Origin: a virus
Taxonomy: Duplodnaviria > Heunggongvirae > Uroviricota > Caudoviricetes
Reading direction: 5' to 3' (one strand)
Length of the DNA: 38,185 nucleotides
IMG/VR virus record: IMGVR_UViG_2671181094_000002
The position numbers and the translations under genes were made by a program. Shown piece by piece: positions 1,241-35,336 of this stretch (positions are counted from its first letter, which is position 1; every line of letters begins with the position of its first letter). Below the pieces are notes generated by a model. It saw nothing but the letters and a program-made list of their open reading frames with translations, did not search any database and was not told the origin of the DNA.

Positions 1241-1245
1241 GGGAT

Positions 1246-1944: not shown

Positions 1945-1953
1945 CAGGGCCTC

Positions 1954-2283
1954 CTATGCCACGACCTGTTCAAAATCTGCCGTTATGGTTACCCACAGCG
2001 CCCCCACGCTTGCCGACCATTTACGACAAACCACCCTGATCGGCTTCCAGTCATAAGGTGGCGTCCACTGAAATGCGCGGACGCCACCGTGCCGTTCCAG
2101 AAAGGCTTTTAAAGATGGGTGTTCACATTTACGAACACGTATCGTCACGCTGTAAGTCGACAACTGGTTATTCAGTCCCGCCGCACGACGCTGTTCATAA
2201 CCATCGCCCAGCTTCACTGTCACCACTTTCGGCTCTGATACCACATTCATATCCGGGCGCACTTTCCAGTGAAACGTCTCCAT
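1954..2283 (-). CDS. M: Tail tip protein M
   Basis: 109-aa ORF METFHWKVRPDMNVVSEPKVV...AFQWTPPYDW, lambda gpM-like; directly downstream of tape measure gene. Confidence 0.9.
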   Translation of the reverse strand: METFHWKVRPDMNVVSEPKVVTVKLGDGYEQRRAAGLNNQLSTYSVTIRVRKCEHPSLKAFLERHGGVRAFQWTPPYDWKPIRVVCRKWSASVGALWVTITADFEQVVA

Positions 2284-5200
2284 TACCGATATGCTCCACT
2301 TAACCGACCACCATCACGGGCCTGCTGTTGCATAAAGTCCGCTGCCGCTTTTTTCCCGAGGTCATAAACCACCTTCAGGGCAGCCGGACCTATCTGCCCG
2401 TTCGTGCCATCGTTATTGATCTCGATGTTGTACTGCGGGGCAAACATCGCCATACCTGAACCACCAATATCCGCCACAACCCCCAGCTTACCGTCAGCAC
2501 CACGACGCAGTGGCAGAATGGCTTCAGGTCCAGCTTCCCCCATCACACCCGCGCCTTTTGCAAAAGCAAAAAACGTCGGACGGTTAACCACCGTGCCACT
2601 GTAACGACTCAAATCAGCAGACTGATAAATCCCCCCATTGGCATTCAGGGAAAGGCTGCTGAGATCAAATCCCAGTACACTGCCAATCCCTTTTATCGAT
2701 TTCATCATGGTTGCCTGCGCCAGGATTTTCGCCATATCTGACAGCACCGAAGAGGTGAAGGATTTGAAGTTGAGTTTGCCGGTAATGACAAAAGTTGCCA
2801 GGCCATTTCCCATGTTGCTGAAGGCTGACGAGAACACCTGTTCTGCTGTTCCTGCCGTATTATCTGCATCCACGGTAAAATCCTGAAATGAACGCAGGAC
2901 TCCGTTTTTCCAGTTACCCTGCACAACTTCAAGCTGTTGCCAGTAACGGCGATTCTCATTCAGTTGTCGGTTCAGGCTCTCCGTCAGCGCCTGCTCGGCC
3001 TTTCTGTAGTCATCCGTGTTATATGTCCCTTTCTGCTCACTATCCCGCCTCAACTGCTCCAGCTGTTGCTGGTATTTCTGGCGAAGACTCAGTTGTACCT
3101 GATATCGCTGCCGCTGCTGATCACCCATACCCACCGTGGCGATATCCAGGTCATGTTGCTGACGCTGAGCGCGCTCTTCTTCAGCCAGTTGACTGGTCAG
3201 CTGAATTGTTTTTTTCTTCAGATCGTTGAGTGCCGTCTGTTTCTGAAGCTCCTGCTGTTTTACATCCAGCAGCGTCAGTGCCTGAATCAGTTCATCTTTA
3301 CGGGCCAGCACACTCTTTTCATCTGCCGTCAGTTTTTTCCCGTCCAGATCGCTGATGCGCTGCTGCAGAGCCAGAAGCTGTTTATGCGCTTCTGTCATCC
3401 TGTCAGTGGCAATGCCTGCTGACTGTCTTGCAGCAGCAATCTGTCCTTCCACCTGTGCCTGTTGCTGACTGTACTGCAGCAATAACCGGGTGGCCTCGTC
3501 ATTACGGATTTCGCGTGTTTTTTTCTTACCGGATGCCAGGGCTTTCTCGTAACGTTCATTTTCACGTTGTATCGCCGCATCCCTGACAGTCTGATCGGCG
3601 TACTGCATGGCATTAATACGCGCAATTTCACGCTGATGTCGTGCAGCTTCCGTTTCATTCATCCGGTTCAGTGCAGCATTTTCAGCATTACGGCGTTTCT
3701 GTTGCTCCTGATAATTCCGCTCTGCCTGCTCTTTTGCATCCTGCAAATCCTTCTGGCGTTTTTTCTCCTGAAGATCGTTAAGACGCTGCTGATCGTATTC
3801 AACCTGAGAAGATGATGCCGTCCAGGGGAGTCTTTTCGCCCGCGACACTTTCTCCTGCAAAGAGGCAATCTGCGCATCCAGCGAATCTTCACGACCAATA
3901 TTCATGGCCGCATCCCAGAACTGCTTCCACCAGTCAGACAAGGTTTGCAGCGTACTACCCAGCGCATTGAGGTTATTATCAATATCCGCAGTACGCCGAC
4001 CGGTTTCCTCTGCCAGTGCAGACATGGCTATCCGTGCCGCATCACTGGACCGCCCCTGCTCTCCAAGGACGCGTATCTGCTCAAGCTGAGTGGCAGTAAG
4101 AAAATGCAGCTCATTGTCCAGAGCCTTCGCGGCATTTACAGGATCATCCTTCAGCCGCTTAAACTGATTTATGGTATCGCTGACCGACTGGCCAACCGAT
4201 CGCTCCATCTGTGCGGCAGCTCTCGCCACCATACCGATATCGTTTCCACGAAATGCACCACTCCCCACCACCTGAGCCAGCGCACCGGCTGCAGCATGTT
4301 GCGTGATACCATTCCCGGAAATAGCACGACTGAGCGTCCACAGCTGCCCGGCAGTGACTCCGGCATAATGCCCCGTCAGCGACAGCTGGCGGTTAAATTC
4401 TTCCCCCTCCTTCTGACCGTCATACCAGGCTTTACCCAGACCATAGACAGCCGCGGCAATACCACCAATAACCCCGCCCAGCATCATGCCTTTCGGTGAC
4501 ATCAGTGTGTCTATCCACCCGGCACGGTTAGCCAGCGTTATTCCGGATCCCCTCAGCGCACCTAAATTTCCGCGGGCCAGTTCACCTATCAGAACGCCTA
4601 TCTCCTGACGGGCCGCTGCACTTTTCAGACCCAGCGAATGCGTGGCTTTTCCTGCCTGCTCCATTTTGCGGATATACACTTCTGCAGCACTGCTTACCCC
4701 CAGCTGGGCAGCCTTAGCACGAAGCAACTCAGAAGAAGAAAGATTCTGGCGGGTTGCCTGCTCTTTAAGCTGACGGATAAACGCCACTTTCTGTCGGGTA
4801 GCCTCTTCCTCAGCCTGTGTAAGAACACGGGTTTTCGCCGTAACCTCAGAAATCAGCGCCAGATAATCCTGCTGACCAATCCCGCCACTGTTTCTGGCCT
4901 GTCGGATCTGCTGCTGAATACGCTGTAATTCCTGCAGACCCGCACTGGCCTGTTTCACACTGTCAATCTGACGATAAAACGCAGCAGCCGCTTTATCCTG
5001 AGCCTCCGCCAGAGCCATGGCCTGCGCCTGTTCCTCGCGCATTTTCTGGCTCAGCGCCTCCATGCGCTGGCGGGTTTTCTCCACCTCGCGGGCCATGCGT
5101 TCATGAGCCTGTGCGTTCTTCTCCACCGTCTGCGCATGGACGGATGCGGCTGTTGCAGCCGAAGACGCCGCCTGCGTTGTCTGCCGGGCGGCCTGAGTCT

Positions 5201-5348
5201 GACGCTCCATAAAACGCTGCATACGGGCAGAAGACCGTTCTGCATCGCTGGCTGCACCATTCAGAAGGTTTTTGATACGGGGGATTTCATTTTTAAACTC
5301 TGCCGCATCAATCCCCAAATCAATGACCAGGTTGGCTATCTGGTCCAT
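2283..5348 (-). CDS. H: Tail tape measure protein H
   Basis: Long coiled-coil-rich ORF (track 2283..5378); probable start MDQIANLVIDLGIDAAEF at 5348 preceded by GGAGG; C-terminus NNDGTNGQIGPAALKVVYD resembles lambda gpH C-terminus. Confidence 0.9.
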   Translation of the reverse strand: MDQIANLVIDLGIDAAEFKNEIPRIKNLLNGAASDAERSSARMQRFMERQTQAARQTTQAASSAATAASVHAQTVEKNAQAHERMAREVEKTRQRMEALSQKMREEQAQAMALAEAQDKAAAAFYRQIDSVKQASAGLQELQRIQQQIRQARNSGGIGQQDYLALISEVTAKTRVLTQAEEEATRQKVAFIRQLKEQATRQNLSSSELLRAKAAQLGVSSAAEVYIRKMEQAGKATHSLGLKSAAARQEIGVLIGELARGNLGALRGSGITLANRAGWIDTLMSPKGMMLGGVIGGIAAAVYGLGKAWYDGQKEGEEFNRQLSLTGHYAGVTAGQLWTLSRAISGNGITQHAAAGALAQVVGSGAFRGNDIGMVARAAAQMERSVGQSVSDTINQFKRLKDDPVNAAKALDNELHFLTATQLEQIRVLGEQGRSSDAARIAMSALAEETGRRTADIDNNLNALGSTLQTLSDWWKQFWDAAMNIGREDSLDAQIASLQEKVSRAKRLPWTASSSQVEYDQQRLNDLQEKKRQKDLQDAKEQAERNYQEQQKRRNAENAALNRMNETEAARHQREIARINAMQYADQTVRDAAIQRENERYEKALASGKKKTREIRNDEATRLLLQYSQQQAQVEGQIAAARQSAGIATDRMTEAHKQLLALQQRISDLDGKKLTADEKSVLARKDELIQALTLLDVKQQELQKQTALNDLKKKTIQLTSQLAEEERAQRQQHDLDIATVGMGDQQRQRYQVQLSLRQKYQQQLEQLRRDSEQKGTYNTDDYRKAEQALTESLNRQLNENRRYWQQLEVVQGNWKNGVLRSFQDFTVDADNTAGTAEQVFSSAFSNMGNGLATFVITGKLNFKSFTSSVLSDMAKILAQATMMKSIKGIGSVLGFDLSSLSLNANGGIYQSADLSRYSGTVVNRPTFFAFAKGAGVMGEAGPEAILPLRRGADGKLGVVADIGGSGMAMFAPQYNIEINNDGTNGQIGPAALKVVYDLGKKAAADFMQQQARDGGRLSGAYR

Positions 5349-5649
5349 AACGCACACCTCCGGAAATACCTTCCCCAAGATGCATCAGTTCTTCGTCCGT
5401 TCGCTCCGGTATCCCGTTCTCTTCCGGTAAAAGGCTGAAATCAGCCACCGCAGCATCACTGCTGCCGGACACCATTCTCACGATCAATGCCTTCAGCGAG
5501 GCAAACTGCGCATCCATCCACACATCACTGAAGCTCTGCATCCGGAAATAATCGCCCCACTCACCAAGCTCAGTGGCCGACATTTCCGACAGCATCCGCC
5601 GCCAGTCTGCCCGCCGGAACTCCCGGGCAAGCCGCATGACAAACTGCAT
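5320..5649 (-). CDS. T: Tail assembly chaperone T segment (expected to be made as G-T fusion by -1 frameshift)
   Basis: ORF in -1 frame relative to G; MRLAREFRRADWRRMLSEMSATELGEWGDYF resembles lambda gpT; -1 frame is open from the G 3' end (about 5665) into this ORF. Confidence 0.8.
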   Translation of the reverse strand: MQFVMRLAREFRRADWRRMLSEMSATELGEWGDYFRMQSFSDVWMDAQFASLKALIVRMVSGSSDAAVADFSLLPEENGIPERTDEELMHLGEGISGGVRYGPDSQPGH

Positions 5650-5657
5650 TTCCCGCG

Positions 5658-6047
5658 TCAGGACTTTTCCGGCGTCAGCACCTCATGCTCCAAATCCCCG
5701 GCATTCTCAATGGCTCCCATACCGCTCAGCGACAGAACCATCTCCGCCCCCGCACCCAGGGCATCATACGACCATGTTGTAATTACGGATGCGCAAAGCG
5801 TCTCAACATCCTGAGACTGTTCCGCATTCCACAGTGAGCGGGAAACCAGCCAGGCATTGATATCCATCCCCATCCGCAGAAAAGCAATCTGTCGTTCAGC
5901 CTCCGGCAGTTCTCCCTCTTCGGCATCAAACTTTGCCGTTCGCTGCTGAACAAACGCCAGATATTCAATTCTCTGCAGCCCGGACAGCTCACTGAGCACC
6001 ACGGACTGCTTTTCATAATTAAACGTGCCCTGTTTCAGAAACATCAT
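5658..6047 (-). CDS. G: Tail assembly chaperone G
   Basis: ORF track 5658..6086; probable start at internal Met (MFLKQGTF..., lambda G starts MFLK) at 6044-6047 with GGTGGAG upstream; SELSGLQRIEYLA motif like lambda gpG. Confidence 0.8.
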   Translation of the reverse strand: MMFLKQGTFNYEKQSVVLSELSGLQRIEYLAFVQQRTAKFDAEEGELPEAERQIAFLRMGMDINAWLVSRSLWNAEQSQDVETLCASVITTWSYDALGAGAEMVLSLSGMGAIENAGDLEHEVLTPEKS

Positions 6048-6104
6048 GTTCTCCACCTGCAAAAAAGCCCCGGATAACCGGGGCAAATGATGAGTATCGT
6101 CCTG

Positions 6105-6848
6105 TTAACCTGCGGCGCTGACAGTCACCGTAGCCACTGCCACAAAATCGCCGTCAGAAGTCATGCCCACAATGCTGACACTGCCCTGCTTCACGCCTTT
6201 CACCGTGGCCACAAGCCCGTTCAGGGTCACCGTGGCAGTCTGTGGATCTGTCGAATGCACACTGATCGCTTTGTCACTGGCTCCGTCAGGTTTTACTGTA
6301 AAGGTCAGCGTGGTGGTTGCTCCCACTTTTACACTGGCAGATGCCGGTGCCACCGTCAGCCCGGTAACGCTCACTGTTTCAGTGCCTTCCTCTGCCAGAT
6401 ACGGACGCCCCACACCGCTGATTTTCACAGTGCGGGTCATCACGTCTTTTGAGGCAATGGTTTTACCCAGTGAACTCAGCCAGCCACGGAAAACATCAAC
6501 AGTACCGTTGGGATATTTGATACGAAACGCGCAGACTTCACCGGAGTCGAACAACTGAACCAGTTTTTTCTGCCCGCTGTCACCCGGACGCCAGGCCAGC
6601 GTCGCCGAAGTATCACCGACTGATTTCTGCCCCTGGGTTGTCGTTTTCCAGTCTGCATCTTCATCATCGAGATAAGTGTCATCTTCTGCATCAGCGGTCA
6701 TTTCGCCAGGTTGCAGATCCTTCACCATCGCAAGACGCAGCCAGTCAGTGTCCGACAAAGGATTCGCAAACGCATCGCCGTTGCCGGTATACATCCAGAA
6801 CGTCGTCCCCGCACCTTTCGTCTTTGCCAGTGGATTTGGTGTGGTCAT
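6105..6848 (-). CDS. V: Major tail protein V with C-terminal Ig-like (Big_2-type) domain
   Basis: Start at internal Met MTTPNPLAKTKGAGTTFWMY (ATG 6846-6848, AAGGAGGTGG upstream); NGTVDVFRGW and C-terminal Ig-like repeat as in lambda gpV; 247 aa. Confidence 0.9.
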   Translation of the reverse strand: MTTPNPLAKTKGAGTTFWMYTGNGDAFANPLSDTDWLRLAMVKDLQPGEMTADAEDDTYLDDEDADWKTTTQGQKSVGDTSATLAWRPGDSGQKKLVQLFDSGEVCAFRIKYPNGTVDVFRGWLSSLGKTIASKDVMTRTVKISGVGRPYLAEEGTETVSVTGLTVAPASASVKVGATTTLTFTVKPDGASDKAISVHSTDPQTATVTLNGLVATVKGVKQGSVSIVGMTSDGDFVAVATVTVSAAG

Positions 6849-6858
6849 TACCACCTCC

Positions 6859-7272
6859 TTAATTCGTGTACGTGATCTGGTACGTGATTTCCGCCATCGC
6901 CCAGGTGGCCATCTCATTATCACGTTGATAGTTAAAACCGAGTGGGATAAGGGTGTCGATGAGTCCGGAAAGTGCCGGTATATCATTCAGGGCAGGAAAA
7001 ATGGTGCTCTCCATCCACATATCCAGCTCTGAATCCGGTGCCTGTGCCCGGATGAAGACGGCAATATGCAGAACAGCCTGCCAGTCATCTTCATCCGTCA
7101 TTTTTCCGGTGTACTGAGCATCACTCAGCCACACCGCCACGGCAGGCAGTTCCTGCGCATCAATAAATGCCGGAAGCCCGTCAAAAAACGTGGCGCTGTC
7201 TCCACACTGTTCCCGAAGGCGTGCCAGTACGACCTGGCGGATTTGTGTATGTCGGTTCATCGGGTCAGCCAT
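6859..7272 (-). CDS. U: Tail terminator protein U
   Basis: 137-aa ORF; ATFFDGLPA...ELPAVAVWLSDAQYTG...ALSGLIDT motifs resemble lambda gpU. Confidence 0.85.
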   Translation of the reverse strand: MADPMNRHTQIRQVVLARLREQCGDSATFFDGLPAFIDAQELPAVAVWLSDAQYTGKMTDEDDWQAVLHIAVFIRAQAPDSELDMWMESTIFPALNDIPALSGLIDTLIPLGFNYQRDNEMATWAMAEITYQITYTN

Positions 7273-7847
7273 AATCTCAGTTGTTGTTTCAGTGCATACC
7301 CCAGCTGTTTCGGCATTTCCGCAGCAATGATGCGGTCGCGGGCATCTTCAAATGCCTGTGTCAGCGGTCCGGACAGCGGGATTTTCACTACCTCCACAGG
7401 AAGACGATTTTTTCTTGGCCTGCCCTGATGGTCATGCCCTGTTGCAAAACGCGCTTCAGGAAGACGCCTCAGAACATGCCAGCGGCCATTCGCCAGTTGC
7501 TGAACAAATGCCCCCCGGAAAAAGTATTTTCCCACTCTCAGTCCTTCACCAGCACGCCGCCGTGTTGTGTTCAGTTTGATGGCGGGCAGATTGCCCCGGT
7601 TAACGCGGATCCTGGCCGTCATTTTTCCTGACGGACTGGCTTTAAACACCCGGACACGCTGACGTACCAGTTTCAGGGGGATCCCTTTCACCTGGTTATC
7701 TCCCGCAACGGTATTCCCGGCAACCTGCCGGGTGGCAACCGAGACCGCTTTCTGTGCCACACGGTTTATCGCCCATGCGCTGGCCTGTGGCACCATACGG
7801 GTATCAAGGCTGTTCAGATTGCGGATGGCATTCTCAAGCCCCTTCAT
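7257..7847 (-). CDS. Z: Tail completion protein Z
   Basis: 196-aa ORF MKGLENAIRNLN...NGRWHVLRRL...VEVVKIPLSGPLTQAF...LGYALKQQLRLWL; colinear with lambda gpZ. Confidence 0.85.
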   Translation of the reverse strand: MKGLENAIRNLNSLDTRMVPQASAWAINRVAQKAVSVATRQVAGNTVAGDNQVKGIPLKLVRQRVRVFKASPSGKMTARIRVNRGNLPAIKLNTTRRRAGEGLRVGKYFFRGAFVQQLANGRWHVLRRLPEARFATGHDHQGRPRKNRLPVEVVKIPLSGPLTQAFEDARDRIIAAEMPKQLGYALKQQLRLWLTR

Positions 7848-7858
7848 CCCACACCTCT

Positions 7859-8134
7859 TTACTCAATAAAGATCATTGGCTTACCGTTAAAGCGTTCATG
7901 CCGTGTGACCGTCCATTGTTGTCCGTCATAAACAACGCGATCCCCGCGCCGTGGGCGGTATCCCGAAGAAAACACCACCAGAGAGACCGCAGGTCCGGAC
8001 AGAGCATTCAGCTCTGCCAGTGTTTCTCCCGGGATCACAGTCATATCGACATCATTAATCGAGGCTGTCTTTCCCATCTTTCTGACCGTGATCGCATCCA
8101 TACGCGCTGCCAGCCGGGAAAAGGGATCAGACAT
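7859..8134 (-). CDS. Head-tail joining protein (FII-like, putative)
   Basis: 91-aa ORF between head genes and Z; RRGDRVVYDGQQWTV resembles FII-type head-tail adaptors; assignment by position and weak motif only. Confidence 0.5.
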   Translation of the reverse strand: MSDPFSRLAARMDAITVRKMGKTASINDVDMTVIPGETLAELNALSGPAVSLVVFSSGYRPRRGDRVVYDGQQWTVTRHERFNGKPMIFIE

Positions 8135-8450
8135 TGAGTTTTACCGGCACTTCTTCTGCACTGGTTCCGGCATCTGCCCAGACAACCCCGACCAGCGGAT
8201 CAGAGCCGCTGTTAGTCAGCTGAACTTTTCCGGACTTCAGATAAACCTTCTTACCCGTTTTCATATCATCCGTTTTCAGCTTAGGCAGCATAAACACACC
8301 TTCGGTCATGCCGTCGCCTGTTTCACCCTGTGGAATATCGGTCAGCGCCACCGCAAAAACATCACCCACCTGCACCAGATCTCCGCTGCTGATGGCTGCA
8401 CTGGCAACAATCGCCACCGTTTTTCCTTCTTCTACAAAATTCTTTGCCAT
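8127..8450 (-). CDS. Small head-associated protein (decoration or head-completion protein, unassigned)
   Basis: ORF track 8127..8495; likely start MAKNFVEEGK at 8448-8450 with GGAGA upstream; sits between capsid and FII-like gene. Confidence 0.4.
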   Translation of the reverse strand: MAKNFVEEGKTVAIVASAAISSGDLVQVGDVFAVALTDIPQGETGDGMTEGVFMLPKLKTDDMKTGKKVYLKSGKVQLTNSGSDPLVGVVWADAGTSAEEVPVKLNV

Positions 8451-8536
8451 AACTGTCTCCGCACAGCCCCGTTCAGGGGCTGATTTCAGGTACAAAAAAA
8501 GCCCTTACGGGCCATCAGAGTTGTTGTCTGCGACGT

Positions 8537-10495
8537 TTACGCCGTACATTTCACCAGACCGCGGTGATCAACTGGCGCGACACCGGCGTCAATACGCACT
8601 TTCGTTGTCACGCCATCCACACTGAAGCCCTCCATCTGATCAATATATGGCGTATCCACACCGTTGAGATAAGCCACTTCAATTGTATCGGAGCCTTTTG
8701 ACGCAGCCAGGTAGAAGGTGGTCTGGCTGTTATCATCAAGACGAGGCTCTGCAATAACGGTCGCAAAATCTTTCACCGGGTTAATAATACCGGCGTTAAT
8801 GTCAGCCCCCTTGACACTTGAGGAGCGAATGACCTGGTTAGCAACAGACTCCATCGCCGTCGGTACCAGTACGAACGCAGGACGAATATTCAGATGACGC
8901 TCCCCCTCTTTCTGAACGCGCATCAACTGGCGGGCTTTATCCAGCGATGCCACGTCCATTGCAGCGCTCTCCAGTACGTTTGCATGTTTCGCTTTATCGA
9001 ACAGACTTACATTATCTGTGGAGATTTTCGGGTTAGACGTCAGAATGGCATAAACCAGATCGGCAATAGTGGATTTCGCCGCACGGCCCAGCTTCATCGG
9101 GACATCGGTCAGCATATTCAGATCATCATTGATAATGGCCTGACGGGTGATACTGAACAGCTCGCCATAGGTCGCCAGTGCAATAGTGGCCTGTTTATCT
9201 CCGGTGGTGACGTATTTATATTCCGCCCCTTCACGCACCTGACGCAGAGCACTGAAGCCCCCCATACCCACACGATGGGCAATTTTAAAATCAGACAACT
9301 GACCTTTCCGCGTCCACTGTTCATAGGTTTCAGGGGCATCTTCCCAGCCCTGCAGAATGGCTTTGTTCGCAACATCCAGCAGAATATTACCGAAGTCAGA
9401 CGTACTGTGTGTGAACGCCGCACCGACCATCTGCATCGGGTTATAACTGGAAACCCCAATACCCCGTTCAGTCAGTGACATACGGGCATATTCACGCAGG
9501 GTCATCCCGTTGTAGACATTATCACGTTCGGTTTTTTCAAATCCGGCACGCGCCATCAGCGCCTGGCGGATCCCGTCCCCCACAAAATTACCGTTACCGG
9601 CATAAATATGAGCCGGGGTATTTTTATTGGATGGCGTGGACTCGCGCCCCATCTCGTTCAACAGCTTTTCGCGGGCCTGCTCCAGCGAACATTCAGGATC
9701 GGCAAGACACTGAGCCTGCAGCGTCTGATAACGCCCGCCAAACATGGCAAACAGATCATTAATACCGTTTACACGCGCTTTTTGCTCTGCCAGTACCTGC
9801 GCACGGATACTGTTTTCATCCACCACGGGTGCTGCTGCCTGCACTGGCGTCCGGGAGGCTGCAGGTTCATTATCCTGTACGCGTGGAGCACTGTTACGTG
9901 GCGGAGTAATCATGTTTCGAATGGATTCCGGCATCTTTTTAAATTCCTCTGTACGTTTTGACTGAATACATGCCATTGCCTTAACGGCTGGCGTCACCTG
10001 ATCAGCAAATCCCTGTGCCAGACATTCGGCACCGGACATCCAGGTCTCATCCGCCAGCATGGCAGCAATTTCATCGGTGGTTTTCCCGGTTTTCTGTGCA
10101 TAAGCGGGTAACAGAACAGCCTCAACCTTATCGAGCAGGTCGGCATAGGTGCGCATGTCCTCCGCATCACCGCCCGTAAAGCCAAATGGTTTATGAATCA
10201 TCATGAAGGTGTTTTCCGGCATAATGACCGGGTTTCCCACCATCGCAATGACCGACGCCATTGACGCCGCCACACCGTCGACATAAACGGTAATGGACGC
10301 ACCATGTGTTTTCAGTGCATTAAAAATGGCGATGCCTTCAAAGACATCGCCACCCGGTGAATTGATATGGAGATTAATGTGGGTGATATCGCCCAGTGCA
10401 TTCAGATCACTGATAAACTGCTTCGCCGTAACACCCCAGAAACCAATCTCGTCATAAATATAAATATCCGCGTCACTCTGGTGACCAGCCTGCAT
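8537..10495 (-). CDS. Prohead protease (ClpP/S49-like) - scaffold - major capsid protein encoded in a single ORF
   Basis: ORF track 8537..10756; probable start MQAGHQSDADIYIYDEIGFWG at 10495 just after portal stop; N-terminal region has ClpP/S49-like motifs (INSPGGDV, ASMASVIA), then Ala/Gln-rich linker, then about 350 aa capsid-like domain. Confidence 0.75.
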   Translation of the reverse strand: MQAGHQSDADIYIYDEIGFWGVTAKQFISDLNALGDITHINLHINSPGGDVFEGIAIFNALKTHGASITVYVDGVAASMASVIAMVGNPVIMPENTFMMIHKPFGFTGGDAEDMRTYADLLDKVEAVLLPAYAQKTGKTTDEIAAMLADETWMSGAECLAQGFADQVTPAVKAMACIQSKRTEEFKKMPESIRNMITPPRNSAPRVQDNEPAASRTPVQAAAPVVDENSIRAQVLAEQKARVNGINDLFAMFGGRYQTLQAQCLADPECSLEQAREKLLNEMGRESTPSNKNTPAHIYAGNGNFVGDGIRQALMARAGFEKTERDNVYNGMTLREYARMSLTERGIGVSSYNPMQMVGAAFTHSTSDFGNILLDVANKAILQGWEDAPETYEQWTRKGQLSDFKIAHRVGMGGFSALRQVREGAEYKYVTTGDKQATIALATYGELFSITRQAIINDDLNMLTDVPMKLGRAAKSTIADLVYAILTSNPKISTDNVSLFDKAKHANVLESAAMDVASLDKARQLMRVQKEGERHLNIRPAFVLVPTAMESVANQVIRSSSVKGADINAGIINPVKDFATVIAEPRLDDNSQTTFYLAASKGSDTIEVAYLNGVDTPYIDQMEGFSVDGVTTKVRIDAGVAPVDHRGLVKCTA

Positions 10496-10508
10496 CCTGA
10501 ACCAGGAA

Positions 10509-12089
10509 TTATTCTTCGGACTGGTTGTTGGTGTGCTGCGGCTCCTGTCGTTTCGTTGCGGCACTGCTGCCTCCTTTATCACTGGCCGGATCGGTATCAA
10601 ATACCAGATCCAGCTTGCGGTTTTCATCAATTTCGGCCTTGCGCCGACGTTTGACATCATCCGGATTACGACCACCAGCACGTACCCAGTCTGATTCTGT
10701 CGCCGCTCCACCACGAATCTGGATTTTCCAGGCCTCAGCCTCCTTAACAGGGTCAATCCACGGCATCACCGGTCCGGAATACACCGCGGTATACAGTGAA
10801 GAACGATCAAGATCGCGGGGTAGCCTGATAACACCGGATGCCACAGCCTGTTTCAGCCAGGCACGGTACATCGGGCGGGTGACGGCACCAATAAACCAGT
10901 CCTGCAGGATCAGGTAGCCATCAGTAGACTCAACCAGCTCCTGACGCTGGGCGCTGTAAGTGCCGTTATAGTTGCGCGCTGTACTGGAAAAACTCAGACG
11001 ACTGCCAGCCGCCACTGCACGCAACTGACCATTACGAAAAGTTTCAAGATTAGGATTGGGACGATCCGACTTCACCATTCCGATTTCTTCGCCGGGTTTC
11101 AGATCGTCGTAAATAATGCCTGGCTGAATGGTAAGCTCGCGTTCCTTATCCTTGCTGCCATTACCATCCGGTTCATAGCTCTGCCCGTCGCCTTTCCGGA
11201 TGTACATCCCCAGAGCAGCGGCGATCCTTGCTGCAGTCAGCTCAGAATCTTCATACTCTTTCAGAGCACTGAGGCGGATCAGCACACCGGACAACAAAGA
11301 CGTCCCGCGCATCTGGTGCAGACGGCGAACAAATTTAAGATGCAGCATTCGCTCTGCATCCACTTCTTTGGTTTCCATCTGCCGTCCGGATACAGGACGA
11401 CTTTTATACACCAGATATTTTTCGGGACGCCCCCAGTCATCAACAAACACGCCCTGATTCAGCCTGTTGCTCTCATCACTGGTCATGGGAATAAAGTCCG
11501 GCTCGAGTGCCTCCAGCCAGAAATGAACACCGGCAGAAGGCGTCAGGCTGTTTATGCGCCCGGAAACCATCTGGGCAAACACCTCACCATCGCGCAGCCA
11601 GGTACGCAGCATCAGACGTTCGAGCATCGGACGGGTAAACTGCCCGGTGACTTCCGGACTGACAGACCATTCACTCCATCGGGTGCGTATCTCCGCTGCC
11701 AGATCACGGGCAATGGCCCCATTGCGTAATACCGGATGTGGCTCGACAATAATCCCGTTTTTCCCCACCACCCGTTCTTCCAGCTTGTCAAATACACCAA
11801 TGACCAGATCGTGGTTGTTATCAAGGTAACGGGCCTGCTCACGTAACGACACGGCCCCGTACTGGCTTAACTGGTCGGCAGTTCGGTTCTCCCGTCGGGC
11901 TTTGTGTGTCCGCGTCGTTTTTACGGCCTCATAAGCCTGAATCACCGCACGGGAACGCAGCCTTGCCGCTTTCCATCCTGGTGAAAAAACGCCAATCACA
12001 TCATCAAGAATTGCCATCAGAACCTCGCCAGCCGGTACCCGGGATGCCCCCGTCGTCGTGTAATCAGAGCCGCAAGGCGGCGCTCCCAC
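10509..12089 (-). CDS. Portal protein
   Basis: 526-aa ORF immediately downstream of W and terminase, upstream of protease/capsid; size and position as lambda gpB; track start is a GTG, an internal ATG (MAILDDV) near 12017 is an alternative. Confidence 0.8.
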   Translation of the reverse strand: MGAPPCGSDYTTTGASRVPAGEVLMAILDDVIGVFSPGWKAARLRSRAVIQAYEAVKTTRTHKARRENRTADQLSQYGAVSLREQARYLDNNHDLVIGVFDKLEERVVGKNGIIVEPHPVLRNGAIARDLAAEIRTRWSEWSVSPEVTGQFTRPMLERLMLRTWLRDGEVFAQMVSGRINSLTPSAGVHFWLEALEPDFIPMTSDESNRLNQGVFVDDWGRPEKYLVYKSRPVSGRQMETKEVDAERMLHLKFVRRLHQMRGTSLLSGVLIRLSALKEYEDSELTAARIAAALGMYIRKGDGQSYEPDGNGSKDKERELTIQPGIIYDDLKPGEEIGMVKSDRPNPNLETFRNGQLRAVAAGSRLSFSSTARNYNGTYSAQRQELVESTDGYLILQDWFIGAVTRPMYRAWLKQAVASGVIRLPRDLDRSSLYTAVYSGPVMPWIDPVKEAEAWKIQIRGGAATESDWVRAGGRNPDDVKRRRKAEIDENRKLDLVFDTDPASDKGGSSAATKRQEPQHTNNQSEE

Positions 12090-12235
12090 TCCTGCCGCCC
12101 CTGCCGGATCTCAGATAAGTTTTCCATGGTCATCTGCTGACCATTAAAGGTGACGGATTTTCCGTCCAGCACCGCCATTTCAGCTTCCGTATAACGCTGA
12201 ATCATGGCTTCAATATCATTCTGATTCATAACCAT
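12017..12235 (-). CDS. W: Head-tail joining protein W-like
   Basis: 72-aa ORF between terminase large subunit and portal; C-terminal RRRGHPGY resembles lambda gpW C-terminus. Confidence 0.7.
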   Translation of the reverse strand: MVMNQNDIEAMIQRYTEAEMAVLDGKSVTFNGQQMTMENLSEIRQGRQEWERRLAALITRRRGHPGYRLARF

Positions 12236-14328
12236 CCTCCGGAAGTCAGCCAGGGGTTAACATCGTCAGTTACTGTTTTCTTCCGTTTTTGTTTTTTAAC
12301 AGGCGTGGATACCGGTTCCGGTGAGGGTGACGGTTCGGTACTGTCCGGGACACACTCCAGCCAGGTTTCCCGGCTCGCCCACTCCGGTGCATCCGGCCAG
12401 CGGATATTTTCGTATCCATGCAGAATGACCAGAGCCTCGGCATACACCATCAGGTCAAAAGCTTCGTTGGTACCGCGACCCGGCTTACTCCATTTCCCGT
12501 CACTGCTCCGCTCTTCATACGTCAGTTCGTCGTAAAACCAGCTCCCCAGCCAGTCAGGGAAATGCACATAGCCTGGACCTGGCGAGTCACGCCATAACGC
12601 GTTATTCACCCGGTCTTTCAGGGCATCCGTCTGCAGAAGCCAGAGCGGCACATCACCTGCGGCCTGCGCCCGGCGGCCCGTTCGTCCGGTGTTATCAGGG
12701 AATGTACGGCTGATCAGTTTTGCGCGCCGGATGCTGTCACCCTTAAACAGGTAAATACGTTTACCAAGGCCATCACGACGGCAACGACGCCAGAATTTAT
12801 AGGCATTATCAGTGACCCCGTCTTCACCGCCGGAGTCCACCGCCATTGCCATCAGTCGCATTTGTTGAGAAGGATCGGAGGCCAGCGGCCAGCTTTTATG
12901 AAAAACATCCGTCAGCAGGACATCCCAGTCTTCCGGATAGCTGGCCGGATCAATTCGCTGGCTCTCCCCGTCGCTGTCACCGCGCAATGACTGCGTGATG
13001 TTGTAACGATCAATAATCCAGCGTTCGCCACGGCTGCCATAGCCCGTTACCTGAACCACAAAACGGCGATGACGTCCCGCCTGCACATCCACTGTCGCCA
13101 CAAGGAAATTAACGCCATCCGGCACACTGCGGGAAGGAACTGGCTCTGCCCGCTGCTCAAGCAGTTCACTTTTTCGTTGCTCCATGCTGGCGCGGGGAAG
13201 ATAAGGTAATCCCCAGTCAGTATTGATAACCGTCTTGAGTGTTTCTTCACTTCCGGTTGTCTCGTATTCCTGTTCTGCAGTAAGCAGTTTGTAAACGAGT
13301 TGCGAGAGTGTCTGGTAAGCAGCTGCCGGACCCTCCATCCAGAATGACGCAATACGTGAGCGTCGGGGATCACCATAACGACTGCCATCCGCATTGATGG
13401 ATTCACCATCCCGCAACCAGACCCCACGTCCGTTCAGCTCACGTTTTTGTTCAGGCATAATCCGTCCTGAACAGGAAGGACACTGAATATAAGCCGCCTC
13501 ACTTGCCAGCACGGGATCGGCAATATCACGGAAACCAGCAACCACATCGCCGCAGGGCTGAAAATACTCACCACAGTGTGGACAGGGCCAGTACCAGCGA
13601 CGGCGATCGCCACGGTTATAGAGCGACAGTATCCCCGTGGTTGGTGGAGCCTCATGCGGTGAAGTCCGTCGCCATTTCACATCCTTCACATCCCTGCCGG
13701 GGGAACTCTCCACCAGCGTCATACCGCTGGACATAAATGTGGTGGTACGTTTTGAGGCAAGAGAGAAGGCATCCCCCTCGCCATCAATATCTTCCGGAAA
13801 ACGGTCATAATCCGTCAGCGCGACGCATTTATAATCTGATGAGGACATGATATTGACTGACGGCCAGCCGATTTTCAGGTAGTTGCCAGCAAGGAATGTT
13901 CTGTCATAAACGTTGTTGTCATTTTTGTTCGGACTCAGGCGACTGACCACTTCCGGGCTGACGCGAAACGTTCTGGCGAGTCGTTTTTTAGAGTGTTCGC
14001 GGGCTTTTTCCTCCGTCATCTGAATGATCAGCATATCCGCAGGATCGCAAATCACGTTGTAAATCACCCAGCCGTCAATCAGGCCGATAGTCTTGCCGGT
14101 TCGTGCCGGGCCAACAAATATCACTGCGTCGTATTCACGCGAGGCCAGGCAGTTCATCGGCTCAATAACATACGGTGCCACCAGCGGATCCCACGGGACT
14201 GAGTTCCCTGCCCCCATGGGCACCCGCATATACTGAGCAACGGCATCAGCAACCCGCATTCGTCTCGGTGCGCGAAGGATATAACCTGAATCGGTTCGTG
14301 CTGCCTTTGCGGTTTCCTGATTCAGCAT
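12226..14328 (-). CDS. Terminase large subunit (GpA-like, cos-type)
   Basis: 700-aa ORF with Walker-A-like VGPARTGKT and CPHCG zinc-ribbon-like motif, organisation like lambda gpA family. Confidence 0.85.
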   Translation of the reverse strand: MLNQETAKAARTDSGYILRAPRRMRVADAVAQYMRVPMGAGNSVPWDPLVAPYVIEPMNCLASREYDAVIFVGPARTGKTIGLIDGWVIYNVICDPADMLIIQMTEEKAREHSKKRLARTFRVSPEVVSRLSPNKNDNNVYDRTFLAGNYLKIGWPSVNIMSSSDYKCVALTDYDRFPEDIDGEGDAFSLASKRTTTFMSSGMTLVESSPGRDVKDVKWRRTSPHEAPPTTGILSLYNRGDRRRWYWPCPHCGEYFQPCGDVVAGFRDIADPVLASEAAYIQCPSCSGRIMPEQKRELNGRGVWLRDGESINADGSRYGDPRRSRIASFWMEGPAAAYQTLSQLVYKLLTAEQEYETTGSEETLKTVINTDWGLPYLPRASMEQRKSELLEQRAEPVPSRSVPDGVNFLVATVDVQAGRHRRFVVQVTGYGSRGERWIIDRYNITQSLRGDSDGESQRIDPASYPEDWDVLLTDVFHKSWPLASDPSQQMRLMAMAVDSGGEDGVTDNAYKFWRRCRRDGLGKRIYLFKGDSIRRAKLISRTFPDNTGRTGRRAQAAGDVPLWLLQTDALKDRVNNALWRDSPGPGYVHFPDWLGSWFYDELTYEERSSDGKWSKPGRGTNEAFDLMVYAEALVILHGYENIRWPDAPEWASRETWLECVPDSTEPSPSPEPVSTPVKKQKRKKTVTDDVNPWLTSGGWL

Positions 14329-14822
14329 TACTCCTCCTGCTGTAATTCCTCCTCATCATCCGCACCTGCTTCGGTCACCCGCAGGGCTATCTGATCGCGC
14401 AGATCATCAATAATGGACTGAACACGGCTCACAGCGGCAGGCTGCAGACCGCAGTCACGTTCCAGAATATCCGGTAATGTCTCCAGCACCTGCACGACCG
14501 CTTTTGCCCAGATGGCAAACTCCCGTCTGACATCACTGGCCGGAATGAGTTGTGCCGTTTCCTGCTCGAACTTAAGACGCTCACGTTCAGACTGATACCA
14601 GGCTTTGCGCTCATGCGCGTCCATTTCGCCTTCTGCAACCGGCGGTGGTAATGCCAGAAATGCCGACACAATATCAACCACCCGATAAAGCTTGAGGTTG
14701 CTTTCATGCCCCCCTGCAACGGGTAGATTTTGCAGCCTTGCCGCAGCAGTCTGGCGATGTACACCTGACAGTGCCGCCAGTTGACTGATATTCAGCGTCA
14801 GATTTTTTAACTCTCGATCCAT
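14328..14822 (-). CDS. Terminase small subunit (putative, not Nu1-like in sequence)
   Basis: 164-aa ORF immediately upstream of and overlapping terminase large subunit; N-terminal HTH-like segment LTLNISQLAALSGVHRQTAAARL; acidic C-terminus. Confidence 0.55.
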   Translation of the reverse strand: MDRELKNLTLNISQLAALSGVHRQTAAARLQNLPVAGGHESNLKLYRVVDIVSAFLALPPPVAEGEMDAHERKAWYQSERERLKFEQETAQLIPASDVRREFAIWAKAVVQVLETLPDILERDCGLQPAAVSRVQSIIDDLRDQIALRVTEAGADDEEELQQEE

Positions 14823-14925
14823 ACCCGCTCCAGAATGTTTTAAACATGCATCTTGCGAACAACTTTAGGCAAACGGTGTTAGTGATGAACAAAAAACAAT
14901 CAAAATCGACACCACAAAAATAAAA

Positions 14926-14953
14926 CTACTGTAATATCAATCTATTACAGTAG
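14926..14953. promoter_or_regulatory. Perfect inverted repeat ctactgtaata-N6-tattacagtag upstream of the packaging genes
   Basis: 11-bp arms, exact reverse complements, 6-bp spacer, about 100 bp upstream of the terminase small subunit start in an otherwise non-coding stretch. Confidence 0.4.
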
Positions 14954-15140
14954 TGGTGATGACGAATGAAATTTCAAAAACTAGCCTTTTTCCGCGACGC
15001 TCCCGCCCCGTGGCAGGCCACCCCACCGGGAGGACCCGTCAGCCTGACAGCTCTGACGAACGTCTGATACAACGCCTTGCATGAATGGCATCGGGATAAT
15101 CCAGAAAGGCATAGCATCGCGCCCACAAGAATCTGTGTAA

Positions 15141-15356
15141 GTGTCCTGTTTCTTCCACCCCCGCACAGGACTGGCGAGCATGAGGGACAAACCCGCGAAC
15201 CATAAACGCGGTAAAAACCCGGTGTGCATCGTTTTTGATTATTCCCGCACACTCTCGCAGAAGGAGTTCCCCGTCGGGCTACGGTCTCTGTTAATACGGG
15301 AATACGGCGACGATACAGCGCATGATGTGTCAGGCTTGAATACCTTTATCCGTTAA
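15141..15356 (+). CDS. Hypothetical small protein on opposite strand between lysis and packaging genes (position of lambda bor)
   Basis: 71-aa ORF (possible internal start MRDKPANHKRGKNPVCIVFDY...); followed 40 nt downstream by a plus-strand hairpin with T-run; no family recognised. Confidence 0.25.
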   Translation: MSCFFHPRTGLASMRDKPANHKRGKNPVCIVFDYSRTLSQKEFPVGLRSLLIREYGDDTAHDVSGLNTFIR

Positions 15357-15395
15357 AAGGGATATCAGTTAAGTTATCCCGTGTAGGGTATAAGC

Positions 15396-15425
15396 CATTA
15401 TCAAAGCCACTCTGTAGGGAGTGGC
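15396..15425 (+). terminator. Rho-independent terminator-like hairpin
   Basis: aagccactc-tgtaggg-gagtggctt stem-loop followed by ttttgtaat. Confidence 0.35.
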
Positions 15426-15637
15426 TTTTGTAATGGCAATAAAAAGCCCCGCGAATACGAGGCTAAATCCTGGTATTTGTAATGACTGGCTCTTATTTCA
15501 ACGCAGCCCCTTACCGCGCGCCAGATGCTCAACTTCAAGCATCAGCAATGAGATGTTTAATCTGGATTCACTCCAGAAGTGATCACCACCCTGTCTACAG
15601 AGCCAGATGTGAAGGATGATGAGTAAAATTATCGCTA

Positions 15638-16117
15638 TCATCGAAGGCATTGCGTCCTGATATATTCCTGAAGCGTTCTCAGTGCTGTCTGGTCTCTGAT
15701 GATTCCGTCCCGGATACCGAGAACGTTTCGTCCAGCAACTGGAGAGAGTTCGACGGTGGCATCATTGCCCATGCCGGAGGCGCTGGAGGTTTCGGCTGAG
15801 GATGGCACAGAGCATTTTCCTTTGACGAGCACCCGACCACCATTATCAAGCTTGCGCCGAAGAGCATCATTTTTAGCTTTCGCATCAGCTAACTCCTTCG
15901 TGTATTTAGCATCGAGTGCATCAGCAGAACGCTGGCGCTGCTGCATGTCAGTAATGGTGGCGGTCGCCTGCTTCAGCTCACTGACTTTTTTATCTCGCTG
16001 TTCTTTGTAGGCGATGGCGTTATCACGGTAATGATTGACCGCCCACGACAGGCAGACGATGATGCAGATAACCAGAGCGGAGATAATCGCGGTTACTCTG
16101 CTCATTGTTGCCCCCAC
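15638..16117 (-). CDS. Rz: Spanin inner-membrane subunit Rz (i-spanin)
   Basis: 159-aa ORF with N-terminal TM segment ([16 protein letters not shown]) and coiled-coil periplasmic region, directly after endolysin gene. Confidence 0.85.
15679..15885 (-). CDS. Rz1: Spanin outer-membrane lipoprotein Rz1 (o-spanin), embedded in +1 frame of Rz
   Basis: 68-aa ORF fully inside Rz; lipoprotein signal with lipobox MVVGC, proline-rich [11 protein letters not shown] as in Rz1. Confidence 0.8.
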
Positions 16118-16599
16118 AAACAGACTTCACGCTCAATCTCACGGCGAGTCATCAGTCCTTTCCATTGATTACCGCCAGCGTATGTCCAGCGCCGTAGCTG
16201 ATCACATGCGCCTTTAATATCACCCTGGTTTATTTTGCGAAGAAGCGTCGATGTTCTGAAATTGCCAGCACCCACGTTGTAGACGAACGAGTAAAGAGCG
16301 CCGCGCGTTGTTTCCGGTATATCGACTTTGATGTACCGGTTAATTTGTCTGGCGACAGTGGCAAGGTCTTTATTCAGGAGGGCTTTGCACTCTGCTTCGG
16401 TATACGTTTTACCGGGAATGATGTCTTTTCCTGTATGCCCGTAACATACAGTCCATACACCAACTATGTCTTTGTAAGGATTATGTCTCACACCTTCCAG
16501 ACCATCGTTACCACTTGGGCCAGTGATTAACACAGATGCTATAGCAATAGCCCCGCCACCAATAGCAGCAGCAACAGCTTTTCGTAATGATGGAGGCAT
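16102..16599 (-). CDS. R: SAR endolysin (phage 21 R-type lysozyme)
   Basis: 165-aa ORF; N-terminal Gly/Ala-rich signal-arrest-release segment [20 protein letters not shown] followed by lysozyme catalytic region (E...D...T pattern), like R21 / DLP12 RrrD. Confidence 0.9.
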
Positions 16600-16814: not shown

Positions 16815-17387
16815 AACCCCACCTCGCAGACAAAGCGGGTGTAAATTGAGGGAATACTACGAAACGTAACAGACTCGGAGTCAGTGAATAACTCAGGTAT
16901 TGGGTTATCAGCTAATATCGAGACTCAAAAAATGGAAAAACCCGCTCGACGGCGGGTTTAAGCTGTGTGACGAAGTAACCACTCTTAACAGCATAACCAA
17001 TTTTTTACGTACGTAAACCACTAAATGATATTTGCGAGAATGCTACCGAGTATTGAAAACACCACTACAAATACATAAGCAAATCTCAACAAATAACCAA
17101 CAAATAATTTCCAGCGTTACTTTTAGCCAATTTAAATTGAACCTTCAAATTATAGAGCGCTTATAAATAACAGCCATTAATATAAATTGGCTAATAGATT
17201 TATTTTTATTCAGCCAAGAGCCATGAATAGGATTCGATAGAAAAAAGTTCAGATAAAAATAGAGATCTACTTCACAAATTAAACGAGAAACCAAAACTTA
17301 CATCTTGAAATAATCACATTGATTAGATGAATATTTATCGCGCAGTGACATCATTTTTTAATAATAGTTCAAAAAAAAGGGCTCACG

Positions 17388-18632: not shown

Positions 18633-18658
18633 ATAACTTTTAGTAAATAATTGGCGTA

Positions 18659-19057: not shown

Positions 19058-19127
19058 AAATCAGACCAGAACGCCAATTACAAGCAAAAATCAACAAAAC
19101 AGTATTAGTTGATTGTTATCTCTGACT

Positions 19128-33790: not shown

Positions 33791-33819
33791 TTTTTCTATT
33801 TCATAGCCCGGAGCAACCT

Positions 33820-35103: not shown

Positions 35104-35336
<233 letters not shown>

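Follow-up and report, generated by a model that had tools for sequence, protein, structure and literature searches.

Described fusion systems and the locus

Effantin et al. (2010, Virology 402:355; cited in PMC12315714) dealt with the fusion of prohead protease and coat protein in Salmonella phage Gifsy-2. Gifsy-2 carries a trimeric decoration protein at its 3-fold axes (PMC8538268) and has been listed as T=7, in a published survey that recovered no HK97-fold major capsid protein for it (PMC8814770). For Pseudomonas phage MD8, gp5 has been read as protease, scaffold and major capsid protein in one gene, with a ClpP template used to model the protease and an HK97 template for the capsid part (PMC8508860). 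A three-domain reading has also been published for Paracoccus prophages (PMC6536676). The phage D3 capsid paper makes no mention of such fusions. The fusion architecture is already known.

Two other head systems provide useful comparisons. In HK97, a scaffolding function is fused N-terminal to the HK97-fold capsid protein, as the delta domain of gp5 of approximately 102 residues, and is cut off by the phage protease inside the procapsid (PMC8508860). The HK97 shell is stabilised by covalent cross-links rather than by a decoration protein, while the lambda shell, like that of Gifsy-2, is cemented by a trimeric decoration protein (PMC8538268). Lambda encodes its head functions in separate genes; Nu3 lies inside C, and D precedes E.

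The window analysed here is a stretch of 38,185 nucleotides of viral DNA (Caudoviricetes, IMG/VR record IMGVR_UViG_2671181094_000002). Sequence comparison supports the presence within it of a Gifsy-2-type protease, scaffold and major capsid protein fusion gene in a lambdoid E. coli prophage. Along its entire length (100%) the protein shares 70.3% identity with the product of STM1034.3n, the 'tripartite capsid gene' of Gifsy-2, and the domain order is the same. The upstream order of terminase, small DUF6148-like gene, portal and fusion gene is shared with Gifsy-2, as is the downstream order of DUF2190 decoration gene, PF13856 'Gifsy-2' head-tail gene and lambda-like Z/U/V/G/T/H tail genes. The Gifsy-2 fusion gene likewise overlaps the end of its portal gene. 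In the Gifsy-2 protein, the N-terminal extension has another sequence and length and starts from an ATG that lies 99 nt further upstream than the aligned position, the low-complexity linker is different, and about 9 residues are inserted ahead of the conserved H-I/M-Y-x-G-N-G-N motif. These differences are of degree only. Essentially the same protein is found in phi458, cdtI, mEp460, Tritos and Ayreon, where nothing of substance differs; the isolated phages phi458, cdtI and mEp460 are 99.4 to 99.8% identical. MD8 gp5, from a phage of the F10/JBD68 group, is 56.8% identical over its full length, although it comes from a different host genus, has a more diverged linker and carries an extra 5-residue insertion in the capsid domain.

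These likenesses support the initial annotation, in which the gene was taken to encode a protease, scaffold and capsid polyprotein of an architecture known in some lambdoid prophages and unlike the lambda head. The same annotation called the removable part a delta domain, a label that is apt by analogy with HK97 and not by homology. The HK97 logic of fusing and then removing a scaffold is shared, but the HK97 protease, gp4, is encoded by a separate gene and has a different, herpesvirus-like fold rather than that of ClpP. No HK97 protease or HK97 capsid family is among the Pfam hits, and the NCBIfam and PHROG hits likewise include no HK97-type protease. An HK97-type module with a separate prohead protease was rejected, the protease here being ClpP-type and fused, with no separate protease gene in the module.

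With lambda, the locus shares the order of portal, protease/scaffold, and decoration and capsid functions, a lambda-family portal, a gpA-type terminase, and a protease of the same broad ClpP/SppA superfamily. At this locus a single gene stands in place of several, and the decoration gene follows it. Direct comparison found significant similarity for the portal only, and BLASTP and phmmer found none to lambda E and D. The decoration protein belongs to PF09956 and PHROG 122, not to the gpD family. A lambda C/Nu3/D/E module was also rejected, since the protease does not score as S49-type, C and Nu3 match only marginally, no conserved internal start for a nested Nu3 was found, and neither gpE nor gpD showed similarity.

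Reading frame, start codon and neighbouring genes

The frame from 8537 to 10495 is open on the minus strand, with 652 codons and a stop in both the ORF and its translation. The strand had not been given in the initial annotation. The features of the gene and its surroundings are as follows.

8127..8450, minus strand: head decoration (cement) protein gene, 107 aa (PF09956 Phage_cement_2, E 1.4e-20)
8491..8513, minus strand: hairpin resembling an intrinsic terminator (GGCCC-GTAA-GGGCT, then seven T in a row), located after the capsid stop and before the decoration gene
8537..10564, minus strand: complete fusion CDS from its most likely GTG start to the TAA stop at 8537-8539, 675 aa, 73.5 kDa, encoding a ClpP-like prohead protease, a scaffold-like region and the major capsid protein
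10496..10564, minus strand: N-terminal extension MPQRNDRSRSTPTTSPKNNSWFR, 23 codons, basic, absent from the ORF drawn at the ATG
10509..12017, minus strand: lambda-family portal protein gene (PF05136, E 6.4e-82; TIGR01539, 456 bits; PGAP coordinates mapped from L001)
10577..10570, minus strand: Shine-Dalgarno sequence AAAGGAGG, within the portal gene 3' end and 5 nt ahead of GTG 10564

The fusion CDS most likely begins at GTG 10564, 69 nt (23 codons) upstream of ATG 10495. The GTG is preceded by a strong ribosome-binding site (AAGGAGG), with a predicted anti-Shine-Dalgarno duplex energy of -11.6 kcal/mol compared with -2.2 kcal/mol for the ATG. Comparative evidence supports this start. The GTG and its Shine-Dalgarno sequence are also present in mEp213, a Stx2d phage and Kp4865-4, while the position of ATG 10495 is occupied by an isoleucine codon in Gifsy-2, Fels-1 and MD8 (ATC, ATC and ATT, respectively). 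An S-W-F/Y motif ahead of the ATG, downstream of the portal stop, is conserved in all 8 homologues. The same 2028-nt CDS is annotated by PGAP in a genome that is 100% identical over 8537..10495. That genome matches only 391..15448 of the window, because the prophage is mosaic; the early region was annotated from a second genome.

With a start at GTG 10564, the fusion gene would overlap the portal gene 3' end, such that 56 nt of the extension (10509..10564) are also portal coding sequence in another frame. The initial annotation described one uninterrupted frame through all of the domains, which is what is found, and a 653-aa ORF from the ATG placed right after the portal gene. The frame holds, whereas the full product would be 675 aa and its start would lie inside the portal gene.

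The synteny expected of a head module is present, with the portal upstream and the DUF2190/cement decoration gene downstream. Pfam, PHROG and PGAP annotation revealed no further protease, scaffold or capsid gene in the interval from the portal to the tail genes. The decoration gene also matches PHROG 122 'head decoration' (E 1.8e-47) and has the same position in Gifsy-2, mEp213 and MD8; its 107-aa product joins the capsid protein in building the mature shell. A rho-independent terminator is annotated in mEp213 at the position equivalent to that of the hairpin.

Domains of the fusion protein

The divisions of the 675-aa protein, and the residues predicted to be catalytic, are listed here.

9995..10471, minus strand: ClpP-related head maturation protease domain, about aa 32-190
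10262..10264, minus strand: predicted catalytic Ser101, motif GVAASMAS, aligned with the ClpP AASM active-site serine motif
10193..10195, minus strand: predicted catalytic His124, motif MMIHKP, aligned with ClpP MIHQP
10001..10003, minus strand: predicted third triad residue Asp188, motif GFADQ, aligned with ClpP G(F/L)(I/V)D
9821..9898, minus strand: low-complexity, variable linker rich in Ala, Pro, Val and Gln, aa 223-248
9614..9820, minus strand: conserved middle region, aa 249-317, proposed internal scaffolding region
8540..9613, minus strand: major capsid protein region, aa 318-675
8549..9433, minus strand: Pfam Phage_capsid_4 core, aa 378-672 (aa 355-649 in the 652-aa numbering)

That the N-terminal region is a protease domain is confirmed by profile searches. 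Pfam CLP_protease (PF00574) matches aa 23-168 of the 652-aa numbering (E 6.5e-36), and NF045542 Clp_rel_HeadMat ('head maturation protease, ClpP-related') scores 216 bits against a cutoff of 120. The domain aligns to solved ClpP structures, catalytic motifs included. Pfam annotation, which had been suggested as a means of placing the catalytic residues, together with the NCBIfam models and the ClpP alignments, puts the predicted triad of a ClpP/S14-type serine protease at Ser101, His124 and Asp188. Of the two alternatives in the original description 'ClpP/S49-like', only the ClpP part stands. An S49/SppA type was rejected, the SppA model TIGR00706 scoring 22.3 bits against a cutoff of 155 and the S49/SppA models generally falling far below their cutoffs. 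A cellular ATP-dependent ClpP subunit was likewise rejected, with 58.7 bits against a cutoff of 308.6 for TIGR00493 and the other equivalog models also far below theirs. By these profile scores, the domain shares the ClpP fold and catalytic motifs without being a ClpP orthologue.

The linker has the lowest sequence entropy in the protein and a mean identity to 7 homologues of only 0.25, with indels present. Across aa 226-262 the composition is 22% Ala, 14% Val, 11% Pro and 11% Gln. The Ala/Gln-rich low-complexity segment noted in the initial annotation is present, but it is short (approximately aa 223-248) and Val and Pro are as abundant as Gln or more so. The region that follows, aa 249-317, is of ordinary, moderately conserved sequence (mean identity 0.58) and is most likely the internal scaffold. 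It ends in a second variable patch at aa 305-317 (identity 0.44, with indels in Gifsy-2 and Fels-1), which is likely to be the zone of maturation cleavage. In a database of 6 proteins, lambda C gave a marginal alignment of 24% identity over fusion aa 120-324 (E 0.02) and lambda Nu3 a non-significant one of 27% over aa 177-324 (161 aa, E 0.26). Both of these alignments reach aa 324 and so span the middle region. A scaffold role for aa 197-317 is suggested by position, conservation and this non-significant resemblance to Nu3.

A capsid-like C-terminal domain of about 350 aa had been noticed, and aa 318-675 correspond to it. This region matches Phage_capsid_4 (PF25209) with E 2e-54 and Mu-like_gpT (PF10124) with E 3.7e-08, and its mean identity to the homologues is 0.75. 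On these profiles it is a major capsid protein of the HK97 fold, resembling Mu gpT, and it gives a weak sequence match (E 3e-4) to a protein of solved structure, the Mu-GpT-type capsid protein 8rkc/8rkx. A sequence search of the PDB matched no solved structure of the fusion family, only cellular ClpPs and this distant capsid protein. AlphaFold2 run on the full 675 aa without an alignment gave a mean pLDDT of 38.8 and a pTM of 0.25. This single-sequence model is unusable, thus the HK97 fold and the domain boundaries are drawn from the profile matches.

Assembly, alternatives and the fusion family

The protein is a full-length member of NCBIfam NF045540 (scaf_prot_MCP1), scoring 985.8 bits against a cutoff of 475 and aligning end to end, with residues 9-651 of the 652-aa numbering corresponding to profile positions 2-651 of 652. 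PHROG 133 covers aa 15-675 with 1201 bits. The RefSeq name is 'ClpP-like prohead protease/major capsid protein fusion protein'. Names given in GenBank vary and include 'putative protease', 'Nu3', 'Major Capsid Protein' and 'terminase protein'.

Very probably, then, this is a head-shell gene whose single chain from GTG 10564 would consist of a ClpP-type protease, tether, scaffold and HK97-fold capsid protein, self-processed in a T=7 procapsid. Translation would start inside the end of the portal gene and produce the basic N-terminal extension, the ClpP-fold protease, a flexible low-complexity tether, the scaffold and the capsid protein, in that order. Full-length chains would co-assemble around the portal, with the capsid domains forming the shell and the protease and scaffold parts pointing inward. 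Crowding inside the shell would activate the proteases, which would cut away the N-terminal 300 to 375 or so residues and then degrade them. The fragments would exit, the shell of mature capsid protein (approximately 33 to 39 kDa) would expand during DNA packaging, and trimers of the downstream 107-aa decoration protein would bind and cement it. Self-processing with loss of the N-terminal two-thirds is expected by homology to Gifsy-2, and the position of the mature N-terminus is likewise a predicted one.

It is possible to imagine that a second product, either scaffold and capsid without protease or a frameshifted truncation, supplies most of the shell subunits and leaves the protease sub-stoichiometric. 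By the standard of phages with a separate protease, a 1:1 ratio of protease to capsid protein, with some 415 proteases in a T=7 shell, would be unusually high. Lambda is annotated as making Nu3 from an internal start in C, and internal Met and Val codons are numerous in the window. However, when 8 homologues were scanned, no in-frame internal start preceded by a Shine-Dalgarno sequence was conserved in either the linker or the scaffold. A single such start recurs (4 of 8, alignment column 189); it falls within the protease domain, is a side effect of conserved Glu-Glu/Glu-Thr codons, and the window does not have it. No conserved X_XXY_YYZ slippery heptamer was found either, making such nested or recoded expression improbable. 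More improbable still is a catalytically dead ClpP-like domain that serves as extra scaffold mass and is removed by a host protease or not at all. The scores far under the cutoffs of the cellular ClpP equivalog models could be taken that way, as could the replacement of the triad Asp by Asn in Providencia phage PSTCR8lys. Asp188 is nevertheless kept in the other 7 of 8 homologues, while Ser101, His124 and their surrounding motifs are kept in all 8, down to 57% identity. The NF045542 cutoff is passed, conservation is at the same level in the protease and capsid regions (0.72 and 0.75), and the head module has no other protease gene.

Separate protease and capsid genes might also have been merged by a frameshift or stop missed in sequencing or assembly. 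Most phages with ClpP-type prohead proteases do keep these genes apart; for 1,569 of 1,649 phage records the match extended over less than 80% of the query, and in a sample of 40 spread down the ranking it was mostly confined to the protease part. PAN70 and VT1-Sakai carry disrupted copies, the latter with an IS629 insertion. Against this, 80 phage records, spread over Escherichia, Salmonella, Klebsiella, Providencia and Pseudomonas and 56 to 99.8% identical, keep the frame uninterrupted. Approximately 2,016 of 5,426 complete E. coli genomes carry the protein, annotated as a fusion, with the same open frame. There is thus no sign of the hidden frameshift or stop between domains that the initial annotation had considered. 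The reading frame is conserved through the linker and scaffold as well, and a curated full-length family model exists in NF045540. An artefact is effectively refuted.

The fusion architecture carries little weight as a discovery, given the characterisation of Gifsy-2 in 2010, the existence of dedicated NCBIfam and PHROG families and the presence of the gene in more than a third of complete E. coli genomes. For annotation, the CDS is best drawn on the minus strand as 10564..8537 instead of 10495..8537. The inconsistent database names mean that automated capsid-gene finders can miss the fusion protein.

The fusion family is a neat natural system in which to ask how a protease tethered 1:1 to the capsid protein stays inactive until assembly. 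The 23-residue basic N-terminal extension may serve a particular function, for instance by coupling translation to that of the portal gene or by contacting the portal. Cellular ClpP needs heptameric rings for activity. Since there would be one ClpP-fold protease on each shell subunit, or about 415 in a T=7 procapsid, it is conceivable, though rather unlikely, that these proteases work in an arrangement dictated by the 6-fold and 5-fold capsomers instead of in such rings. Both ideas apply across the family and are not specific to this window. If true, the capsomer arrangement would represent a way of oligomerising that is new for ClpP-fold proteases.

Reading frame and probable start of the fusion gene

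The initial annotation had placed a prohead protease, a scaffold-like linker and the major capsid protein in a single uninterrupted reading frame at 8537..10495, with no strand given. This frame is open on the minus strand, with 652 codons and a stop, and continues open upstream up to 10756. The ATG at 10495 that was taken as its start is 13 nt past the stop of the lambda-family portal gene (TAA, 10509-10511). In a genome that is 100% identical across 8537..10495, the RefSeq CDS for the fusion gene is 2028 nt, which places its start at a GTG at 10564. AAAGGAGG stands 5 nt before this GTG, at 10577..10570, and the computed anti-Shine-Dalgarno pairing is -11.6 kcal/mol for GTG 10564 versus -2.2 kcal/mol for ATG 10495. 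This GTG and its Shine-Dalgarno sequence recur in phage mEp213, an Stx2d phage and Klebsiella phage Kp4865-4, where the codon corresponding to the ATG comes 69 nt further downstream. That equivalent codon is ATC in the Salmonella phage Gifsy-2 and in Fels-1, and ATT in Pseudomonas phage MD8. Directly before it, S-W-F/Y is kept in all eight of the diverged homologues aligned; this is encoded downstream of the portal stop, thus its conservation is not explicable by portal coding. Based on the RefSeq CDS, the Shine-Dalgarno strength, the codons of the relatives and the S-W-F/Y conservation, the open frame stands and its predicted start is moved to GTG 10564:

10564..8537, minus strand, fusion gene, predicted 675 aa and 73.5 kDa, sharing 56 nt with the 3' end of the portal gene

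Both the ribosome-binding site of the fusion gene and its opening 19 codons sit within the portal 3' end (10509..10577, minus strand), where portal coding uses a different frame. mEp213, the Stx2d phage and Kp4865-4 share this layout. So do Gifsy-2, Fels-1 and MD8, whose start codons differ; in Providencia phage PSTCR8lys the annotation begins at the downstream ATG instead. This arrangement suggests that translation of portal and capsid is coupled.

Domains and relatives of the fusion protein

Profile searches found both the protease and the capsid domain in one frame, with approximately 185 residues between them.

Pfam matches of the fusion protein (652-aa numbering)
aa 23-168, CLP_protease, E 6.5e-36
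aa 355-649, Phage_capsid_4, E 2e-54, with a secondary match to Mu-like gpT

NCBIfam NF045540, 'ClpP-like prohead protease/major capsid protein fusion protein', with a cutoff of 475 bits, aligns to the protein end to end and scores 985.8 bits; the match to PHROG 133 spans aa 15-675. For the N-terminal domain, NF045542 ('head maturation protease, ClpP-related') gives 216 bits, above its cutoff of 120. With the equivalog models for ClpP and with the S49/SppA model, scores fall far short of the cutoffs. On these profiles, the domain has a ClpP fold but is not an orthologue of ClpP, nor an S49 peptidase like lambda gpC, so that of the earlier label 'ClpP/S49-like' just the first half is retained. 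In alignments with solved ClpP structures, GVAASMAS, MMIHKP and GFADQ fall on the Ser, His and Asp motifs, giving the predicted catalytic residues Ser101, His124 and Asp188. All eight homologues, of which the most distant is 57% identical, keep the Ser and His; a single one, from a Providencia phage, has Asn in place of the Asp.

The Ala/Gln-rich segment described between the domains is real, but short. Sequence entropy in the protein is lowest at approximately aa 223-248, and aa 226-262 are 22% Ala, 14% Val, 11% Pro and 11% Gln (675-aa numbering). Outside this stretch the middle region is ordinary sequence of moderate conservation. Identity to the homologues is 0.25 in the variable tether, 0.58 in the middle region and 0.75 in the strongly conserved C-terminal 358 residues. 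By sequence, the closest capsid protein with a solved structure is of the Mu-GpT type (8rkc/8rkx, E 3e-4). An AlphaFold single-sequence model of the fusion protein had a pLDDT of 38.8 and was unusable.

Effantin et al. 2010 reportedly described the Gifsy-2 protein as having three parts: a ClpP-type protease at the N-terminus, then a central domain of some 200 residues that may act in scaffolding, and lastly the capsid protein. The fusion gene is a routine member of a curated, experimentally founded family and was already known. For the MD8 homologue gp5 (693 aa), residues 16-204 have been modelled on a ClpP template and residues 456-690 on an HK97 template (PMC8508860). A Paracoccus virome study found 17 prophages with such a fusion, ClpP plus gpT-like and about 700 aa long (PMC6536676).

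In a tblastn search of phage genomes, 80 records cover at least 80% of the fusion protein.

Full-length relatives, with identity
phi458, cdtI, mEp460, Tritos and Ayreon (isolated phages), 99.4-99.8%
Stx-converting phages, ~77%
mEp213/mEp043/LLS, ~74%
Fels-1, 72%
Gifsy-2, 70.3%
Providencia phage, 64%
Pseudomonas F10/MD8/JBD68 group, ~57%

The remaining matching phage records (~1,570) cover less than 80% of the query. Most of 40 such records sampled down the ranking align to the protease part only, because separate protease and capsid genes are the usual arrangement. Of 5,426 complete E. coli genomes, 2,016 carry the gene over at least 80% of its length, and the matches listed name it as the fusion protein. 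The full-length frame in these phages and genomes rules out a local frameshift artefact. Broken copies are exceptions (PAN70, and VT1-Sakai with an IS629 insertion).

GenBank phage names for the protein differ widely (e.g. PV340537.1, PV340571.1, ON470598.1, OV696610.1), including 'terminase protein', 'head-tail preconnector protein Nu3', 'head-tail preconnector protease C', 'putative protease' and 'Major Capsid Protein'. As a result, anyone looking for the capsid gene by name in these phages will miss it or be misled.

The prophage and its head module

The stretch is a mosaic lambdoid prophage with host flank. Its structural module, 391..15448, has a counterpart in an E. coli fS58a prophage at 97.9% identity.

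Gene order
Structural module, first part: DUF1441 protein, gpA-type large terminase, DUF6148, portal, fusion gene
Structural module, then: DUF2190 decoration gene, PF13856 'Gifsy-2' head-tail gene, lambda-like Z/U/V/G/T/H/M/L/K/I tail genes
Early region, lambda-like: N, repressor, cro, cII, O/P, nin region, Q, porin moron, lysis genes, exo/bet/gam, xis, int

The early region adjoins host ybhC and ybhJ, the lambda attachment locus. The order of xis and int, then ybhC and ybhJ (~33400..38185), places the prophage at this classical site, and the prophage/host junction should be near 34.5 kb. The mosaic divides into a Gifsy-2-type head with a lambda-type tail, as in fS58a, versus 15449..~37600, where the early region is lambda-like and resembles that of other genomes (PCP06101, 97.4%); fS58a has a different early region (yfdP/Q/R, Rha, KilA-N). 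A low-GC island at ~17000..19500 (GC 0.39-0.41 versus ~0.52-0.57 in the structural genes) coincides with the porin gene, which is on the strand opposite the late genes and is assigned from L010, a 97%-identical genome. It lies between the QuuD-like Q antiterminator and the lysis genes, and looks like a moron. An ORF of the GIY-YIG nuclease family at ~15660..16150, between the lysis genes and the terminase region (annotated at L010 1447..1935), may be a homing-endonuclease-like insertion near cos.

Compared with lambda's own head proteins, the portal alone has significant similarity (23% identity, E 2e-8), and none was found to gpE or gpD. The initial annotation was thus right that this module differs from that of lambda. 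Lambda C and Nu3 match marginally over the middle region (E 0.02 and 0.26, 6-protein database).

The decoration gene is directly downstream of the fusion gene, beyond a terminator-like hairpin. The gap from the capsid stop is 86 nt and holds two hairpins (8463..8513, minus strand).

Features downstream of the fusion gene
8513..8491, minus strand, terminator-like hairpin, GGCCC-GTAA-GGGCT then seven T
~8481..8463, minus strand, second hairpin, CAGCCCC-TGAAC-GGGGCTG
7859..8134, minus strand, 91-aa gene after the decoration gene, Pfam PF13856 'Gifsy-2'

In mEp213 a terminator is annotated at the position equivalent to the first hairpin. The hairpins could fix the proportion of capsid to decoration transcript or make the mRNA more stable. 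The 91-aa gene is labelled 'ATP-binding sugar transporter from pro-phage' (PF13856), 'DNA breaking-rejoining protein' (RefSeq) and 'minor tail protein' (PHROG 153). These names look unreliable; its position and a weak Phage_attach match make a head-tail connector or head completion protein more likely.

Proposed head assembly and processing

The structural module has no other protease, scaffold or capsid gene. A nested product made in lambda style from an internal start is not supported, as no in-frame start with a Shine-Dalgarno sequence is conserved in the linker or scaffold region of the eight homologues, and neither is programmed frameshifting, with no slippery heptamer conserved. It is unlikely that the protease domain is catalytically dead, since its Ser and His are invariant and it is as conserved as the capsid part.

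The initial interpretation, a proposed self-processing polyprotein, is supported. The mature N-terminus is probably between approximately residues 300 and 375. A guess at the cleavage zone is a second variable patch at aa 305-317, where Gifsy-2 and Fels-1 carry indels; a conserved H-I-Y-A-G-N-G-N motif follows directly after it. On homology to Gifsy-2 and analogy with HK97 and lambda, full-length chains would build a T=7 procapsid on the portal, their N-terminal parts facing inside. The proteases would then cut off and degrade the protease and scaffold parts, packaging would expand the shell, and decoration trimers would cement it.
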